Part shown: one piece after another, positions 5,640 through 50,513 of the stretch | Layout of the letters: every line of letters begins with the position of its first letter | Position numbering within the stretch: the first letter of the stretch is position 1 | Assembly: GCA_965223295.1 (NCBI GenBank) | Contig: CBDCWC010000003.1 | Span: 448,001 to 512,000, forward strand | Source of the DNA: Nitrospirales bacterium | GTDB taxonomy: Bacteria > Nitrospirota > Nitrospiria > Nitrospirales > UBA8639 | Reading direction: 5' to 3' | Length of the DNA: 64,000 nt | Program-made: the position numbers and the translations under genes | Notes under the pieces: generated by a model | What the model saw: only the letters and a program-made list of their open reading frames with translations | Databases searched by the model: none | What the model was told of the DNA's origin: nothing

Positions 5640-7019
5640 ATGAACGTTGGATTTGGGAAACTCCTCGTCACCCGTTTCATGGGTATTCGTTTGCAGCCTG
5701 GACAAGTCGTGGCCTTAGCGGCACTGGGCCTTATCGTCCTGGGTGCTGGCCTACTCCTGCTGCCATTTTCTACAAAACCTGACGTCTCTCTGGGAATCCT
5801 GGATGCCCTATTCACCGCGACATCCGCCGTTTGTGTGACCGGCTTGATCGTCATGGATACCCCGCAAGATTTTACGGCTTTTGGGCAGGGTGTGATTTTG
5901 TTCCTGATTCAAATCGGGGGACTTGGCTATGCCTTAATGGCCACGTTGATACTCTTGATGTTGGGACGTCGCTTAGGCTTGCGCGATCGCATGATGCTCT
6001 CTGAGACAATGAACACCATGGATCTGCAAGGCCTCGTGCGATTTGTCAAAATCGTCACATCAATGACCTTGGGTTTGGAAGGAATTGGAGCGATTCTGCT
6101 GACCTTGCGTTTTGCCATGGATCACCCCTGGGACACGGCAGCCTATTATGGTGTTTTTCACGCGATCTCCGCCTTCAACAATGCTGGATTCGCCTTATTT
6201 TCGGATAGTCTCATTTCCTTTCAAACAGATTGGACCATTAATATTATCGTAACGAGTTTAGTGATCTTAGGAAGTATTGGTTTTCTCGTCTTTGAAGATC
6301 TTTTGGACAATCTACGAGGGGCCCGATTCCGGTTCCGCACGCATACCAAACTTGTCGTGACAACGACGGGGCTGCTCATTGTCATTGGCACCTTCGGTAT
6401 TGCCATGCTGGAATGGAATAATCCTGCCACCATGCAATCCCTCTCCGCTGGCGAAACATTCACGGTTTCGTACTTTCACACCGTCTCACGAACCGCCGGA
6501 TTTACGACCGTCAACGTCGGTGAGATGCGAGAGCCTACGCTGTATTTTTTACTCCTACTCATGGCAGTAGGCGGGTCACCTGGTAGCATGTCTGGAGGAA
6601 TTAAAACCACCACCATTGCCATCGTCTTTTTGACTATTTGGAGCCTGTTACGGCGCGATAGTGATGTGGAAGCCTTTCACCGTCGCATTCCTCCAGACCT
6701 GATTACCCGCGCACTCTGTTTGACCATTTTGGCCGTGACCCTCATTACGGGAATGACGCTGCTTCTGAGCTCGACCGAATCACAGCCATTTTTATCCCTT
6801 ATGTTTGAAGTGACGTCTGCCATGGGCATTGTAGGCATGTCCCTGGGCGATGGTGATGCCCGAAGTCTATCGGCACTTCTCACCGACTTTGGAAAAATGA
6901 TGATCATGCTCTCGATGTTGTTGGGACGATTTGGCCCACTCGTCATTGGACTGTCTGCTGTTAAAACCTCGGTACACAAACCCTATCGTTTGGCCCAATC
7001 TCGTGTTGTGATCGGATAA
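5640..7019 (+). CDS. Trk/Ktr potassium uptake membrane subunit (TrkH/KtrB family)
   Basis: Pore-loop motifs FTATSAVCVTGL, AISAFNNAGF, SRTAGF, GGIKTTT, FEVTSAMGIVGMS. Confidence 0.9.
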   Translation: MNVGFGKLLVTRFMGIRLQPGQVVALAALGLIVLGAGLLLLPFSTKPDVSLGILDALFTATSAVCVTGLIVMDTPQDFTAFGQGVILFLIQIGGLGYALMATLILLMLGRRLGLRDRMMLSETMNTMDLQGLVRFVKIVTSMTLGLEGIGAILLTLRFAMDHPWDTAAYYGVFHAISAFNNAGFALFSDSLISFQTDWTINIIVTSLVILGSIGFLVFEDLLDNLRGARFRFRTHTKLVVTTTGLLIVIGTFGIAMLEWNNPATMQSLSAGETFTVSYFHTVSRTAGFTTVNVGEMREPTLYFLLLLMAVGGSPGSMSGGIKTTTIAIVFLTIWSLLRRDSDVEAFHRRIPPDLITRALCLTILAVTLITGMTLLLSSTESQPFLSLMFEVTSAMGIVGMSLGDGDARSLSALLTDFGKMMIMLSMLLGRFGPLVIGLSAVKTSVHKPYRLAQSRVVIG

Positions 7020-7024
7020 ATCTT

Positions 7025-7315
7025 CTACGCAATTCGACGTTGCAACATGAGGATAAAGGCCACGAGCGTCGGGAGCGGGCATATCGCATAGGGCAATAGC
7101 CACACCCACACATTTTTCCCGCGAACGCGGGCTTGATCAATCATCCACACAAAAATCCAAATAACCAACAGCACGTAGTTCACCGTGATCCATTGAGTCG
7201 TTCGCACATGCAACTGACTATCAGCCCCGCCACCGGTCATCACTAGAAATATGCCTTCTAGAATGACGAACGCAGCTAATAATCCCAGAACCAAACGCTT
7301 GCTCCAGACATACAT
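7025..7315 (-). CDS. Small hypothetical membrane protein (about 3 TM)
   Basis: Start reset to MYVWSK at 7315 behind the RBS AAGGAG; hydrophobic segments. Confidence 0.6.
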   Translation of the reverse strand: MYVWSKRLVLGLLAAFVILEGIFLVMTGGGADSQLHVRTTQWITVNYVLLVIWIFVWMIDQARVRGKNVWVWLLPYAICPLPTLVAFILMLQRRIA

Positions 7316-7472
7316 CGTTACACTCCTTGTTGAAAAATGATCCAATACATGAGACGTCTCAACTATCTTTTGCTTTTCATTTCCCTCTTCCCTCTCAGTC
7401 AAAAAAACCAGTCCTTATAACAAAAGTCCCATCAGAGCGTCCTACCCCGTCAATTTCTCGGCTCTATTCTTT

Positions 7473-7663
7473 GGGAGTGTTGAATAATGAAGATATCAAA
7501 AGCCATATTTCGCCATGAAGCCCTTGGCGATCAACAACCTCGGGGCTGTTCAAAAAAGTCCGTCCAGCAAGGTCACCGCCATTTTTGCGCGCGGAGCGTC
7601 CTGGCAGTACGTGAGCACAGAACAATGGTGAAAACGCTGCTGTCGGCTTTTTTCAACAGACTC
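7473..7663 (+). repeat. MITE-like element copy 1
   Basis: GGGAGTGTTGAATAA...GGGGCTGTTCAAAAAA...TTTTTCAACAGACTC flanked by TCTTT on both sides. Confidence 0.9.
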
Positions 7664-7774
7664 TCTTTAGATTTGTTAAGGAAGAATTTTCTGCTCAGCC
7701 GATCTGGATTTTTACGCTCAGCTGGTCATTAATTGATTTTTTTTAAAGAAAATTCGCCTCTTCATCTCTTCAAA

Positions 7775-7879
7775 TGTGCATAACTCCAATCGCCGAACAT
7801 TTTCCCTGTTGATAACTCATAAAATCTGCTTTGAAAGCCCTATCAATATTCATGTTTTACAACTCACAAGTTTTTCACA
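7775..7879. promoter_or_regulatory. DnaA-box-like sites upstream of nrdJ
   Basis: TGTGCATAA (7775), TGTTGATAA (7807, 1 mismatch) and TTTTTCACA (7871) against TTWTNCACA. Confidence 0.5.
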
Positions 7880-7903
7880 GAAATCCCCATGCCTTCACAA
7901 TTT

Positions 7904-7951
7904 TTACAATATTTAGTATTGACAATTCCCCCTATACTCTATAGATTGTGG
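7904..7951 (+). promoter_or_regulatory. Tandem NrdR boxes overlapping the nrdJ sigma70 promoter
   Basis: TTACAATATTTAGTAT (7904-7919) and ACTCTATAGATTGTGG (7936-7951), 32 bp apart, match acaCwAtATaTwGtg; TTGACA (7919)-17 nt-TAGATT (7942). Confidence 0.8.
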
Positions 7952-8106
7952 GTCATTGGTCTTTACCAATTATTTCTTCAGATCTTATTTTTCCTGTTTT
8001 CTCTGCTTGGTTCCGGTTTGTGGTATGACCTGTGAGTCACACAATTTGAGGGCATATTTCCTTTTCTAAAAACGGTGAAATAGAGCCCCTCTGGAACCGG
8101 TCAAGG

Positions 8107-8141
8107 AAAGGGCATGTCAATTCTGTACATGCTCTTTTTTT
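8107..8141 (+). terminator. Intrinsic terminator inside the nrdJ leader
   Basis: AAAGGGCATGT-9 nt-ACATGCTCTTT followed by a T run, ~135 nt before the start codon. Confidence 0.7.
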
Positions 8142-8275
8142 ATTCACCCTGACCCAATCATCCAAGTTATCCCTAGCTTGGTCGTTTGGAAGTAGAGAGT
8201 AACCGGACTAGTTACGATGATGATCGAAGAAATACCCCACTGTGCTTCCACCATGTCTTCAAAAGGAGACTTTTC

Positions 8276-11200
8276 ATGAAAATTGCACGACGTTTTACGA
8301 AACTTGGCGAGAGCCCTTATCAGACCATTCCCTTTTCCACACGATCTTCGGAAATCAGAAATCCTGACGGATCAGCTGTCTTTAATCAGGACAATATTCT
8401 GGCTCCTGAACATTGGTCTCAATTGGCTATCGACATTTTAGCGCAAAAATATTTTCGTAAAGCCGGCGTGCCGCAATATGACGATGACGGTCAACCCCTC
8501 TTTAACGAGAAGGGCGGGCCCTTACTTGGAGGGGAACGTGATGCTCGCCAGGTCTTTCACCGCTTGGCAGGATGCTGGACCGAATGGGGGAAGAATCATC
8601 ATTACTTTGACTCTCCAGAAGATGCTCAGACCTTTAAGGATGAACTCAGCTACATGTTAGCGTGGCAAATGGCAGCCCCCAATTCTCCGCAATGGTTTAA
8701 TACCGGCTTGCATTTTGCCTATGGCTTATCCGGTCCCTCGCAAGGCCATTACTATGTGGACCCCAATACCCATCGGGTCAAGCAAGCACGCAATGCGTAT
8801 GAACGTCCGCAAGTGCATGCCTGTTTCATTCAATCTATTTCTGATGATTTGGTCAACGAAGGTGGGATTATGGACCTCTGGGTTCGTGAAGCCCGTCTGT
8901 TTAAATACGGCTCCGGAACCGGCACGAATTTCTCAAAGTTACGGGCTGATGGAGAGGCTTTATCCGGCGGCGGCCGTTCTTCCGGACTGATGTCGTTTCT
9001 CAAAATCGGGGATCGAGCGGCAGGCGCTATTAAATCGGGCGGGACGACAAGACGAGCGGCAAAAATGGTCTGTCTAGATCTGGATCACCCTGACATCGAA
9101 GAGTTTATTGATTGGAAGGTTGTAGAAGAACAAAAAGTCGCGGCCATGGTCACCGGCTCAAAGATTTGCGCGCAACATCTCAACACCGTGCTCAAGGCCT
9201 GCCATGCTTCCAAACCTGATGGCACCATGCAGCTCAACGTCAATCCAGCCGAAAATTCCGCCTTACAGGAGGCAATCAAAGCCGCCCGTGAGATGTCTGT
9301 GCCTGAAGCCTATATTCAACGCATGTTCAATTATGCCCAAGAAGGGTTCACCCATTTTGTCTTTCATGAATACGACACCAATTGGGATAGTAAAGCCTAC
9401 CAAACGGTCTCAGGGCAAAATTCCAATAACAGCATTCGGGTGCCCAATGAATTTTTTGTCGCGCTCAAATCTGGCGGCGATTGGACATTGACCCGTCGCA
9501 CAGATGGCAGTGTGTTCAAAACCATTCCTGCCAAGGACCTTTGGGACCGAATTTCATGGGCTGCTTGGATTTGTGCCGATCCCGGCATTCAATATGACAC
9601 GACCATCAATGAATGGCACACCTGCCCACAAGCTGGGCGGATTAACGCGTCAAATCCCTGCAGTGAATATATGTTCTTAGATGACACCGCATGTAATCTA
9701 GCATCTTTAAATCTCGGGCGGTTTCTGACGCCAGAGGGCCAATTCGATATTGAAGGATTTCGGCATGGCGTACGGTTATGGACAATTGTCTTAGAAATTA
9801 GCGTCTTAATGGCTGGATTCCCCAGTCGGGCCATCGCCGAAAAAAGCTTTTCTTTCCGCACACTCGGATTGGGCTATGCCAATCTTGGCTCAATTCTCAT
9901 GAAGTTAGGCATCTCCTATGACTCACCCGAAGCCTTAGCCTGGTGCGGCGCCATCACAGCCTTGATGACCGGGGAATCCTACGCCACCTCTGCAGAAATG
10001 GCCAAGGAACTTGGGCCTTTCAATGCCTATCCCCGTAATGCTGAATCTATGTTGCGAGTCATGCGGAACCATCAACGAGCCACGCACAATGTTGAACCAG
10101 ACGAGTATGAAGGACTCACCATTACCCCTCAAGGTATACCGCAAGATCAATGTCCACAAGACTTGCTGACAGCTGCGCAGAAATCCTGGGATCGGGCCCT
10201 TGAACTAGGGGAACAATATGGCTACCGCAATGCTCAATCAACGGTTATCGCACCAACTGGGACCATTGGCTTAGTCATGGACTGTGATACCACTGGTATC
10301 GAACCTGACTTTGCTCTCGTCAAATTCAAGAAACTTGCGGGCGGAGGGTATTTTAAAATTATCAACCAAAGCTTGCCGCCAGCCTTACGAAATCTGGGAT
10401 ATAGCTCCTCCGAGATTCAAGACATTATTACCTATGCCACCGGTACTCGTACGCTCAAGCAAGCGCCATTTATTAACCATGAAACTTTGCAAGCCAAAGG
10501 ATTTGACCGAACCATCCTGGAACATCTTGAAACAACATTGGACGGAGCCTTTGATATTCAATTTGTCTTTAATAAATGGACGTTGGGAGAAGACTTCTGT
10601 CGCAACACATTAGCACTCACCGACGCACAACTTGAAAATCCACAACTGAATATCCTTCAACATTTAGGCTTTACACAAGAGGAAATTCTGGCCGCCACAG
10701 ATTTTTGCTGCGGCACCATGACCGTGGAGGGCGCACCACATCTCAAACCGGAACATTTAGCGATCTTTGACTGTGCCAACCGATGCGGACGCATTGGGCA
10801 ACGGTATATTCTGCCTCAAGCTCATATTCGAATGATGGCCGCAGCCCAGCCATTTATCAGCGGGGCTATCAGCAAAACCATCAATATGCCAGCCGATGCG
10901 AGTGTGGATTCGGTCAAAGATGCATATCTCTCGTCATGGACTTCCATGTTAAAAGCCGTGGCCTTGTATCGTGACGGCTCCAAACTTAGTCAACCATTGA
11001 ATTCCGTAAGCGATTGGGGAGAGGCATCGGCTCAAGCCGAGCAAGTCCAATCTGTGGCGAAAGAGGCCGCCTCGCGTGTGCTTGTCCGTTATCTGGCAAA
11101 ACGACGCCCTCTTCCAACACGCCGTGGTGGCTATACGCAGAAAGCCATTGTTGGAGGACATAAGATTTATTTACGAACAGGCGAGTACGAAGACGGCACG

Positions 11201-11809
11201 CTTGGAGAAATTTTTCTGGACATGCACAAAGAAGGCGCCGCCTTCCGGAGTCTCATGAATTGTTTTGCCATCGCTATCTCCCTTGGTCTCCAGCATGGCG
11301 TCCCTCTTGAAGAATTCGTGGATGCCTTTCTGTTTACACGTTTTGAACCGAATGGACCGGTCAAACTCAACAACCATATCAAGATGTCCACGTCGATCAT
11401 CGATTACATTTTCCGTGAAATGGCCATTACCTATCTTGGCAGACATGACCTGGAACAAGTTGCCCCGGAAGACCTTCGGGTGGATGCCCTCAAGAAACAA
11501 ACAGACACGGAAGAAGGAGATGGAGAAGGTTTGGTAGACCCTCGTTCGTTGAGTTCAACCTCCATTAGTCCGGAAGTTTTTCCCTCTCGCCGATCATCCG
11601 AGAATGGAAAAGGAAAGAACGGTGGTCCGAGAAAAATCGCACGGAAAGTCGAAATGCAACGTGAAACCGTGACCGTTACTGAAGTTCAGGAAGCCCGGCA
11701 AAAAGGATACGAGGGCGATCCTTGTCAAGAATGCAAGCAATTTATGATGGTCCGCAATGGCATGTGCCTGAAGTGCGACAACTGTGGTGCCACCAATGGA
11801 TGCTCCTAA
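8276..11809 (+). CDS. nrdJ: Adenosylcobalamin-dependent (class II) ribonucleotide reductase
   Basis: [54 protein letters not shown]-terminal TSCPD-like region and CxxC..CxxC; start at ATG 8276 behind AAGGAG. Confidence 0.95.
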
Positions 11810-13518: not shown

Positions 13519-13596
13519 TGGCGTCCCCAGCGGGATTTGAACCCGCGTTGCCGCCTTGAAAGGGCGGCGTCCTAGGCCAGGCTAGACGATAGGGAC
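13519..13596 (-). tRNA. tRNA-Glu (TTC)
   Basis: Reverse complement GTCCCTATCGTCTAGCCTGGCCTAGGACG-CCGCC-CTTTCAA-GGCGG...GGTTCAAATCCC...GGGACGCCA. Confidence 0.97.
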
Positions 13597-13857: not shown

Positions 13858-14285
13858 GGTGGAGGAGCGGGCCTGTAAGCCGGATTCTGTACCGATAGAG
13901 GCAAGCCTTATCGGCGGTGACCATTTCTCTAGAACCTAAGTTACCCTAGGCTTCAAGCAACCTACCCGGGAACCTTGGCCGGGCCGACCTCCCTCTCCGA
14001 GAGTGGGAAATGACTTTCACACTTCACGGAGATTCGTTCCCCTATTTGGTTTTGCTCCAGGTGACGCTTACCCTGCCGCTTATGTCACCACAAGCGCGGT
14101 GAGCTCTTACCCCACCATTTCACCCTTACCTGACTGAAGCCAAAGCCCCAGCCATCGGCGGTATCTTTTCTGTGGCGCTAGTGTCGGATTGCTCCGCCTG
14201 GGCGTTACCCAGCACCGTGCCCTATGGAGTCCGGACTTTCCTCTCACCTATGAATAGGTGAGCGGCCACCCGGCCCACTTCCACC
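13858..14285 (-). ncRNA. rnpB: RNase P RNA (bacterial type A)
   Basis: GAGGAAAGTCCGGACTCC near the 5' end, ACAGAATCCGGCTTA near the 3' end, AAGGGTGAAA..GTGG.GTAAGAGC, and a P1 helix between the termini. Confidence 0.95.
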
Positions 14286-15136: not shown

Positions 15137-15213
15137 TGGTGGGCCCACCAGGACTTGAACCTGGGACCAACTGATTATGAGTCAGTCGCTCTAACCAACT
15201 GAGCTATGGGCCC
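15137..15213 (-). tRNA. tRNA with CAT anticodon, probably tRNA-Ile2 (lysidine)
   Basis: Reverse complement GGGCCCATAGCTCAGTTGGTTAGAGCG-ACTGA-CTCATAA-TCAGT...GGGCCCACCA; paired G1-C72 and no GGG/CCC anticodon stem rule out the initiator tRNA; Ile2 versus elongator Met is inferred. Confidence 0.9.
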
Positions 15214-50395: not shown

Positions 50396-50417
50396 GAACT
50401 TTCGTACTTTCTTTGCC

Positions 50418-50502
50418 GCTTCCCTACGCTGGTATTATCCAGGTCAGGTATGAGGGTCGTCCAACTCTTGATTGGACATCTCAGCGAAAACGCTCCCCTA
50501 GC
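50418..50502 (-). ncRNA. TPP riboswitch
   Basis: Reverse complement CTAGGGGAGC...GCTGAGA...GACCCTCATACCTGACCTGGATAATACCAGCGTAGGGAAG upstream of thiC-thi4. Confidence 0.95.
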
Positions 50503-50513
50503 CTTTTTTGTCA

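Follow-up and report, generated by a model that had tools for sequence, protein, structure and literature searches.

A conserved structured leader of the ribonucleotide reductase gene nrdJ in Nitrospirales and its possible control of a coupled upstream open reading frame

The nrdJ locus and its NrdR-type promoter

The 64,000-nt stretch of a Nitrospirales genome analysed here (referred to as the window) carries nrdJ, the gene for a class II, B12-dependent ribonucleotide reductase (RNR), the enzyme that alone supplies DNA precursors. The element under study, the ~320-nt nrdJ leader at 7955–8275 on the + strand (Table 1), lies between a trkH-family transporter gene (5640–7019) and the nrdJ start codon. 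nrdJ is the sole PF02867 locus in the source genome, which is scored 100% complete and in which neither NrdB nor NrdD was found. It appears to be the cell's only RNR gene, so the leader must permit expression. A preliminary description had presented this leader as a candidate unrecognised riboswitch or attenuator. Our comparison of related, non-independent genomes, combined with thermodynamic predictions, indicates that the leader is a real conserved cis-regulatory RNA, while the riboswitch or attenuator reading is largely unsupported. The conserved parts are the two ends of the leader, which are predicted to form a long-range helix overlapping a short upstream open reading frame.

The promoter of the leader has the layout of an NrdR operator. 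As set out in the operator definition of PMC13584703, such an operator consists of two partially palindromic 16-bp boxes separated by a linker of 15–16 bp, with C4, A6, A8, T9, T11 and G13 conserved. Two 16-bp boxes with a 16-bp linker are found upstream of nrdJ, where they overlap the -35 and -10 elements of a sigma-70-type promoter, and the cognate repressor is encoded in the same genome (TIGR00244 at 196 bits, above its cut-off). Box 2 is also the window's sole match, with at most 3 mismatches, to an NrdR-box consensus; shuffled sequence yields one or more such matches in 30 of 100 cases, so this result is not significant alone, and the assignment of the boxes rests on the PMC13584703 definition instead. 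Box 1 is kept in the genus and in 8 of the 13 genera of the family, and the sigma-70-type promoter is invariant or almost so in 20 leaders of the genus. From the promoter spacing we place the transcription start site at about 7955 (7954–7956), and a promoter scan found no promoter-like site between 8141 and 8275. Taken together, these features support transcription of the leader from a promoter that NrdR can occlude, in agreement with the NrdR involvement suggested in the preliminary description. The likeness to NrdR-box RNR promoters as defined in PMC13584703 extends to box size, linker and placement over -35 and -10, but it concerns the transcriptional layer only, with NrdR binding being a prediction, and leaves the 320-nt leader unexplained.

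Further upstream, the ~880 nt between trkH and the nrdJ promoter (7020–7900) hold only open reading frames without a Pfam match, at 7025–7402 (-, 125 aa) and 7487–7732 (+, 81 aa). At its C-terminus (~11690–11806), following the TSCPD domain, NrdJ ends in a Cys-rich tail of the form CxxC...CxxCxxC, which we take to resemble the zinc-finger tail of many class II RNRs.

The conserved ends of the leader

We compared 48 homologous nrdJ leaders, 44 from the genus of the window and 4 from a sister genus. The genus set comprises 43 distinct genome leaders of 279–328 nt and one leader from a metagenome contig (L140), and the sister genus has leaders of 307–321 nt in 4/4 genomes. Two cases were left out: G047, in which the contig ends 103 nt upstream, and G005/L126, in which the -10 anchor pattern failed and the leader is present by DNA search. 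Searched with the N-terminal part of NrdJ, 38 of the 41 sampled relatives and 45 of the 50 genomes of the window genus proved to have the gene. When 115 genomes from 13 genera of the family were searched at the DNA level, the segment with the promoter and NrdR boxes (query 7–51) was recovered in 8 genera, and the 5' strand of the leader was confined to the window genus (44/49) and one sister genus (4/4). Six leaders folded from other genera of the family (118–318 nt) are unrelated in sequence, and in other genera of the order the leaders that follow NrdR-box promoters are short and unrelated. A scan of metagenomes with a 15-base promoter/hairpin pattern matched 118 stretches; the 80 examined were all chance matches except L140, which has the leader. 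The named related records are Nitrospirales metagenome-assembled genomes, and conservation of the leader spans two genera of this order whose members are uncultured or rarely cultured.

The leader of the window is predicted to be highly structured. The unconstrained minimum free energy (MFE) structure of 7954–8280 has an energy of -102 kcal/mol (z = -4.99), a value that 0 of 100 dinucleotide shuffles reached, and the z-scores in three clades are -5.0, -2.5 and -4.05. At the very 5' end, the hairpin P0 is paired in 96.5% of cells across the 48 leaders, with its loop-closing pair changed from U-A to A-U in three of them; P0 probably protects the transcript. It is followed by the pyrimidine-rich 5' strand of the long-range helix P1. 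In the proximal part of P1, leader nt 17–30 (7971–7984) pair with 8222–8234, ~240 nt downstream. These 13 bp are paired in 93.1% of cells versus 24–55% in slid controls, and both-side changes occur at 4 of the 13 pairs, including GGUC/GACC to GAUC/GAUC and AGUC/GACU in L258, with a covariation score matched by 0 of 500 shuffles. Proximal P1 is formed in the unconstrained MFE structure of 42 of 44 leaders, and it was the only helix recovered by RNAalifold on the concatenated leader ends of all clades. The distal part of P1 (~7985–8008 with ~8186–8208) shows compensatory changes in subclade A, the subclade of the window (for example CG in 12 and UA in 5 leaders at one pair), and in clade B it has a different sequence that is again complementary. 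The 5' element of P1 occurs a single time in the genome. Both P1 strands are conserved beyond purely structural need, and the AUACC just past P1 is kept in both genera. P1 encloses a multi-hairpin domain of ~200 nt (P2–P5), in which P3, P4 and P5 recur with sequences that differ between clades; this middle part of the leader fails to align between clades.

The purine-rich 3' strand of proximal P1 coincides with the first codons of a putative upstream open reading frame (uORF), whose predicted length is 13–22 codons across the leaders and whose stop lies at or beside the nrdJ start. In 46 of the 48 leaders, an open reading frame with an ATG, GTG or TTG start opens within or close to the P1 3' strand and ends between -15 and +10 relative to the nrdJ ATG, and 38 of the 44 genus leaders have one of these start codons in frame within 24 nt upstream of a conserved ATA anchor codon. 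Several leaders have lost the usual start and have an in-frame ATG instead, 3 nt upstream in L002, L003 and L009, 6 nt upstream in L127 and in place of the ATA itself in L130; L015, L016 and L018 have the same ATG in a shifted frame that is open for 13–18 codons. All four leaders of the sister genus have an open reading frame with a canonical start (ATG/GTG/TTG in L257 and L258, GTG/TTG in L259), the ATG frame of L256 being shifted relative to the ATA codon and still open to the overlapping TGA. The uORF stops fall at +1 (the overlapping ATGA), at +8, or at -13/-15, and the three uORFs in the frame of nrdJ (L015, L016, L020) all have a TAA at -15. We consider it fairly likely that the uORF is translated.

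Inside the uORF lies a hairpin that buries the nrdJ Shine-Dalgarno (SD) sequence GGAG. Its four core pairs are almost invariant in the 48 leaders, and the GGAG is fully paired in the MFE structure of 39 of 44 leaders. For the nrdJ SD, the predicted mean unpaired probability is 0.08 when the full leader is folded, 0.18 when the first 60 nt are omitted and 0.22 when only the 3' fragment is folded. For the uORF start region, the predicted unpaired probability is 0.16 with the full leader and 0.59 with the first 60 nt omitted. The nrdJ SD is thus predicted to be buried with or without the 5' strand and the uORF start to be freed without it, and these accessibilities fit a two-step lock. A short open reading frame that ends at or beside the start of the main gene, with the ribosome-binding site of that gene in a structure inside it, is the arrangement of a coupling uORF. 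We also considered a three-strand switch, in which the GAAGA of P1 would pair with the UCUUC of the SD hairpin, and rejected it, as the SD accessibility changed only from 0.08 to 0.18–0.22 in the absence of the 5' strand.

Table 1. Positions of nrdJ and of the promoter and RNA features of its leader in the 64,000-nt window
Feature	Position	Strand	Basis or remark
NrdR box 1 (TTACAATATTTAGTAT), predicted	7904–7919	+	6/6 highly conserved positions (C4, A6, A8, T9, T11, G13; operator definition of PMC13584703)
Sigma-70-type promoter, TTGACA 7919–7924, 17-nt spacer, TAGATT 7942–7947	7919–7947	+	10/12 consensus positions
NrdR box 2 (ACTCTATAGATTGTGG), predicted	7936–7951	+	5/6 conserved positions (operator definition of PMC13584703); G at position 9
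P0, 5'-terminal hairpin ATTGGT-CTTT-ACCAAT	7955–7970	+	MFE; pairing in 48 leaders
P1 5' strand, pyrimidine-rich; proximal 7971–7984, distal ~7985–8008	7971–8008	+	Pairing, covariation
Three-way junction: closing stem 8009–8016/8091–8098 (8 bp), P2 8018–8044, P3 8048–8091	8009–8098	+	MFE
P4 hairpin, predicted intrinsic terminator; core stem 8110–8117/8127–8134, T-run 8135–8141 (seven T)	8103–8141	+	-16.8 kcal/mol
P5 hairpin CCAAGTTA-TCCC-TAGCTTGG	8162–8181	+	In MFE
P1 3' strand, purine-rich; proximal 8222–8234 = uORF codons 2–6	8186–8234	+	Pair list, counts
Putative uORF, 20 codons; TGA overlaps the nrdJ ATG (ATGA)	8217–8279	+	Frame analysis
SD hairpin GTCTTC-AAAA-GGAGAC, buries the nrdJ GGAG (8265–8268)	8255–8270	+	MFE
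nrdJ, class II (B12-dependent) ribonucleotide reductase, 1177 aa	8276–11809	+	Pfam Ribonuc_red_2_N, Ribonuc_red_lgC, TSCPD

Several leaders outside the compared set deserve mention. In the genus g8 (L260, L264, L266–L275), the NrdR-box promoter is kept and the leaders are unrelated, with 10 of 16 parsed leaders measuring 287–315 nt; L262 and L032, from another genus, likewise keep the promoter in front of unrelated leaders of ~300–320 nt. In the single-sequence MFE structures of L260, L262 and L032, a 5' segment pairs directly with the SD/start region across ~250–300 nt. Long-range sequestration of the start region may be a theme of the whole family. In addition, one member of the window genus (L135, G016:C3:1971703-1972252) has a second nrdJ-like gene with 65–72% N-terminal identity, and neither an NrdR-box promoter nor the leader was seen upstream of it.

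The junction and the terminator in the middle of the leader

Within the central part of the leader, the preliminary description had located a regulatory switch, consisting of a closing stem around two hairpins and an intrinsic terminator directly downstream (8107–8141). All of these stems were recovered at the positions it gave, and all of them are contained in the MFE structure. In isolation, the three-way junction has an energy of -26.7 kcal/mol. The segment 8103–8141 consists of a G+C-containing hairpin followed by a U-tract, bearing out the claim of an intrinsic terminator in this genome, with its activity being predicted. A standard terminator scan does not list 8107–8141, presumably because the loop exceeds its 8-nt limit, and a custom scan recovers the hairpin at -14.8 kcal/mol. 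The position of P5 holds a hairpin of different sequence in other clades.

No Rfam 15 family reached its gathering score within the leader, and no cobalamin or adenosylcobalamin (AdoCbl) riboswitch model did so anywhere in the window. At E ≤ 10, the region 7700–8400 gave five weak, irrelevant matches, the best with 19.4 bits versus a gathering score of 60; neither the cobalamin riboswitch clan (RF00174 and AdoCbl variants) nor the purine and 2'-deoxyguanosine (2'-dG) riboswitches, which also contain a three-way junction, were among them, and the junction of the window is not kept in relatives. The earlier statement that cobalamin-riboswitch hallmarks are missing agrees with this result, and the orphan nrdJ-associated RNA motif mentioned there has no counterpart in Rfam 15.

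In an alignment of the 19 leaders of subclade A, pairing amounts to 59% for the closing stem and to 46% and 66% for the two P2 stems, none of which shows real covariation. The outer P3 stem is 77% paired, with one pair being AU in 9 and GC in 5 leaders; P3 is kept as a hairpin with compensatory changes, and the AGAGGC of its 5' arm recurs in other clades. The terminator hairpin (helix 6) is 79% paired, with both-side changes at 10 of 15 pairs. Conservation of the stems, which had been named as a check on the proposal, is therefore seen within the subclade for P3 and the terminator hairpin and not for the closing stem and P2. When the 19 leaders were folded one by one, a stem enclosing two hairpins formed in just two of them, the window (L001) and its closest relative L119, with L128 a debatable third, and the junction nucleotides differ between clades. 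We also observed that a motif in the P2 loop, GCYTGTGARYT (alignment A1 columns ~75–87, window ~8029–8040), is kept in most of the 19 leaders, the stem beneath it being variable; no pairing partner for this motif was found.

The terminator itself has a limited distribution. A hairpin followed by a U-tract (at least 6 of 8) at leader position ~143–187 is present in 12 of 43 genus leaders and in 0 of 5 further leaders, and thus missing from 36 of the 48, including all leaders of clades B and B2 and of the sister genus. The proposed alternative pairing was assessed in the leaders that do have it. GAGGGCAT (8048–8055) is indeed complementary to ATGCTCTT (8129–8136), with a duplex energy of -9.4 kcal/mol, as had been noted; the claim that the two folds form a mutually exclusive switch was not supported. 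When the mononucleotides of the upstream region were shuffled, 14 of 300 trials in one test and 28 of 200 in another gave a duplex that was at least as good, and enforcing the pairing costs ~10 kcal/mol (-40.6 vs -50.8). None of the 12 leaders with the terminator has an upstream partner for the terminator 3' arm that outperforms shuffles (17–150 of 200 at least as good), and the same applies to the 5' arm (14–193 of 200); the position of the best partner also shifts between relatives. The conserved alternative pairing of a terminator/antiterminator attenuator was thus not observed.

The chance-level antiterminator, its variable partner and the unconserved junction leave a conserved aptamer-plus-antiterminator design unsupported, and the comparison indicates that the junction and terminator are lineage-specific rather than a conserved aptamer. 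Because the terminator is found in only 12 of the 48 leaders, neither a transcriptional switch nor a terminated small RNA (sRNA) can be the conserved function. What stands of the original proposal is a structured, cis-acting nrdJ leader with, in this genome, a canonical intrinsic terminator; its ligand- or protein-responsive transcriptional switch and its NrdR-controlled sRNA, as functions shared by the relatives, do not.

A proposed gating mechanism, its rivals and its precedents

We propose that the leader is transcribed from an NrdR-occludable promoter, that P1 gates initiation at the uORF and that translation of nrdJ is coupled to that of the uORF, a model for which we see the chances as evenly balanced. 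P1 would pair leader nt 17 to ~55 with a purine-rich segment located 40–105 nt upstream of the nrdJ start and thereby set how often the uORF start is available. Ribosomes translating the uORF would open the SD hairpin and end translation right at the nrdJ start, leading to coupling or re-initiation, such that efficient access to the nrdJ start would be gained only after uORF translation. In the lineage of the window, P4 has gained a U-tract and should, with no dedicated antiterminator, end a fraction of the transcripts at ~8141. This terminator is probably a lineage-specific attenuation layer, and a leaky one because nrdJ appears to be the sole RNR gene. As part of this best reading, the conserved core would not be a ligand pocket and the leader would be unlike a vitamin- or nucleotide-sensing riboswitch. 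The control of bacterial RNRs known to us is either transcriptional, by NrdR or by B12 riboswitches on some class I operons, or allosteric; the nrdJ leader would add a post-transcriptional layer, in which a long-range helix gates a coupling uORF. If confirmed, it would be a clear case, found in nature, of a leader open reading frame that is controlled in cis over a long distance.

It should be noted that a number of observations weigh against this model. The leaders are related to each other, so that shuffle statistics overstate their independence. L019 and L118 (2/48) have only ATT or CTG at the position of the canonical uORF start. An SD sequence for the uORF is inconsistent, being GAGG 8 nt upstream in clade B and GGAG 5–7 nt upstream in some leaders of clade A, and none was seen on inspection of the window and several other leaders. 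The region is poor in stop codons, with the frame of nrdJ itself open for 15–50 codons upstream in many leaders, and in the two other frames the stops just past the nrdJ ATG are set by nrdJ codons, the overlapping TGA always and the +8 TGA where the fourth codon begins with GA. As open frames are common and these stops derive from nrdJ codons, openness and stop position carry little weight. The conservation of GAAGAAAUA could stem from P1 alone, because constraints on the peptide and on the RNA are confounded there. Swapping the distal P1 strands between clades is only weakly discriminating (-16.5 own vs -14.1 cross-clade), since any pyrimidine strand pairs with any purine strand. Finally, the model names no single signal for opening P1, which could be kinetics, temperature, a protein or other bound factor, an sRNA, or cleavage by an RNase such as RNase III.

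Two alternatives assign a sensing function to the domain enclosed by P1. In the form closest to the preliminary description, the P2/P3 junction would be an aptamer for AdoCbl, a deoxynucleoside triphosphate (dNTP), a deoxynucleoside or a protein, and would choose between the terminator at 8107–8141 and the antiterminator 8048–8055/8129–8136. The junction, the terminator and the complementary octamers do exist in the window, covariation within the subclade is seen for P3 and for the terminator hairpin, the P2 loop motif is widely kept there, and a strong terminator in front of the sole RNR gene found would need read-through. However, the closing stem and P2 are poorly paired and lack real covariation, the junction topology is restricted to two or perhaps three of the 19 leaders and its sequence differs between clades, the alternative partners are at shuffle level in 12/12 leaders and change position, and with the terminator absent from 36/48 leaders and no match in Rfam, we regard this aptamer as improbable. 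A broader version, in which the P1-closed domain is the sensor of an undescribed, RNR-specific class of regulatory RNA, seems equally doubtful to us. A signal would open or lock P1 and toggle the uORF-coupled translation of nrdJ, with P4 termination added in some lineages; candidate signals are a nucleotide, AdoCbl, an alarmone, or Mg2+ or the state of the ribosome read through the acidic-Pro peptide of the uORF.

The remaining alternatives attribute a different role to the P1 strands or to the terminated transcript. Long RNA duplexes are substrates of RNase III, and the imperfect P1 duplex of ~35–40 bp may be a processing site or stability element, with cleavage removing the 5' strand and activating or destabilising the nrdJ mRNA, and with the uORF being incidental. 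A long coaxial P1 is predicted in every clade, as illustrated by the 23-nt distal duplex of L004 (-24.3 kcal/mol) and the perfect 13-bp proximal helix of L258, and the rise in uORF-start accessibility after removal of the first 60 nt would suit such a cleavage. This explanation is nevertheless unlikely, as it accounts neither for the in-frame relocation of the uORF start nor for the frame-0 TAA, and the nrdJ SD would still be buried without the 5' strand. A small RNA derived from the 5' untranslated region (UTR) would arise if transcripts ended at ~8141 (~187 nt) were stable and NrdR-controlled, with their free pyrimidine-rich strand acting in trans. A strong terminator directly downstream of an NrdR-box promoter would allow this, the P1 5' strand is partnerless in the predicted fold of the terminated transcript (7955–8150), and 3' ends within 5'-UTRs that yield sRNAs are reported for E. 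coli (PMC7815308). We give such an sRNA little credence, given that the terminator is restricted to a quarter of the leaders, that the 5' strand is conserved together with its partner in cis, and that the genome holds its 5' element once, with no second, target-like copy found. Equally hard to credit is binding of a protein, by NrdJ autoregulation or through another RNA-binding protein, to the P2 loop, the AUACC or the U/C-rich strand. The conservation of the P1 strands beyond structural need and the presence of AUACC in both genera would fit a protein site, but no candidate protein emerged, uORF codons account just as well for the conserved 3' motif, and the P2 loop motif is restricted to subclade A.

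The proposed gating of the nrdJ uORF by P1 has parallels in other systems. In the plasmid systems tap-repA (IncFII R1) and repY-repZ (IncI-alpha/IncB), a leader open reading frame ends at the initiation region of the main gene and its translation unfolds the hairpin over the ribosome-binding site, with access to the start of the leader frame being controlled. Translation of the main gene thus depends on the leader open reading frame, as proposed for nrdJ; in contrast, the inhibitor there is an antisense RNA acting in trans, whereas here it would be a 5' strand in cis ~240 nt away, and the gene class and the organisms are unrelated. RNR genes are also known to carry riboswitches, with a cobalamin riboswitch on Streptomyces nrdABS and a 2'-dG riboswitch upstream of Mesoplasma RNR genes. 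The nrdJ leader resembles these, and attenuators, in being a long structured leader before an RNR gene, here with a three-way junction followed by an intrinsic terminator, but it differs in having no Rfam match, no conserved junction core or antiterminator, and a terminator in 12 of 48 leaders.

A further parallel is the Salmonella mgtCBRU operon, in which translation of the mgtQ uORF frees the sequestered ribosome-binding site of mgtB (PMC8092293). The two systems share a very short open reading frame just upstream of the main gene, a downstream ribosome-binding site within an inhibitory stem-loop that overlaps the short frame, and early acidic codons, which are Asp2 and Glu5 in mgtQ and a Glu-Glu pair before Ile/Leu-Pro in most of the nrdJ uORFs. 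In contrast, mgtQ has 8 codons, is intergenic and lacks a long-range 5' strand that gates its start, and there is no sequence relationship. The peptide of the putative nrdJ uORF is also not strictly kept, being frame-shifted in 4 of 48 leaders. The mechanistic kind, SD sequestration with uORF coupling, is already known; the leader family and its layout, with a long-range 5' strand gating a coupling uORF before an NrdR-controlled RNR gene, appear to be new. Among the papers listed by full-text literature searches, none describes an nrdJ-associated RNA motif or nrdJ-leader uORF, which is a weak negative.

Other RNAs were identified elsewhere in the window. They comprise a thiamine pyrophosphate (TPP) riboswitch aptamer (RF00059) at 50404–50509 on the - strand, with 65.5 bits where the gathering score is 54.3, an RNase P RNA of the bacterial class A type at 13860–14281 on the - strand (313 bits), and three tRNA genes at 1100–1172, 13522–13596 and 15140–15213 (-).

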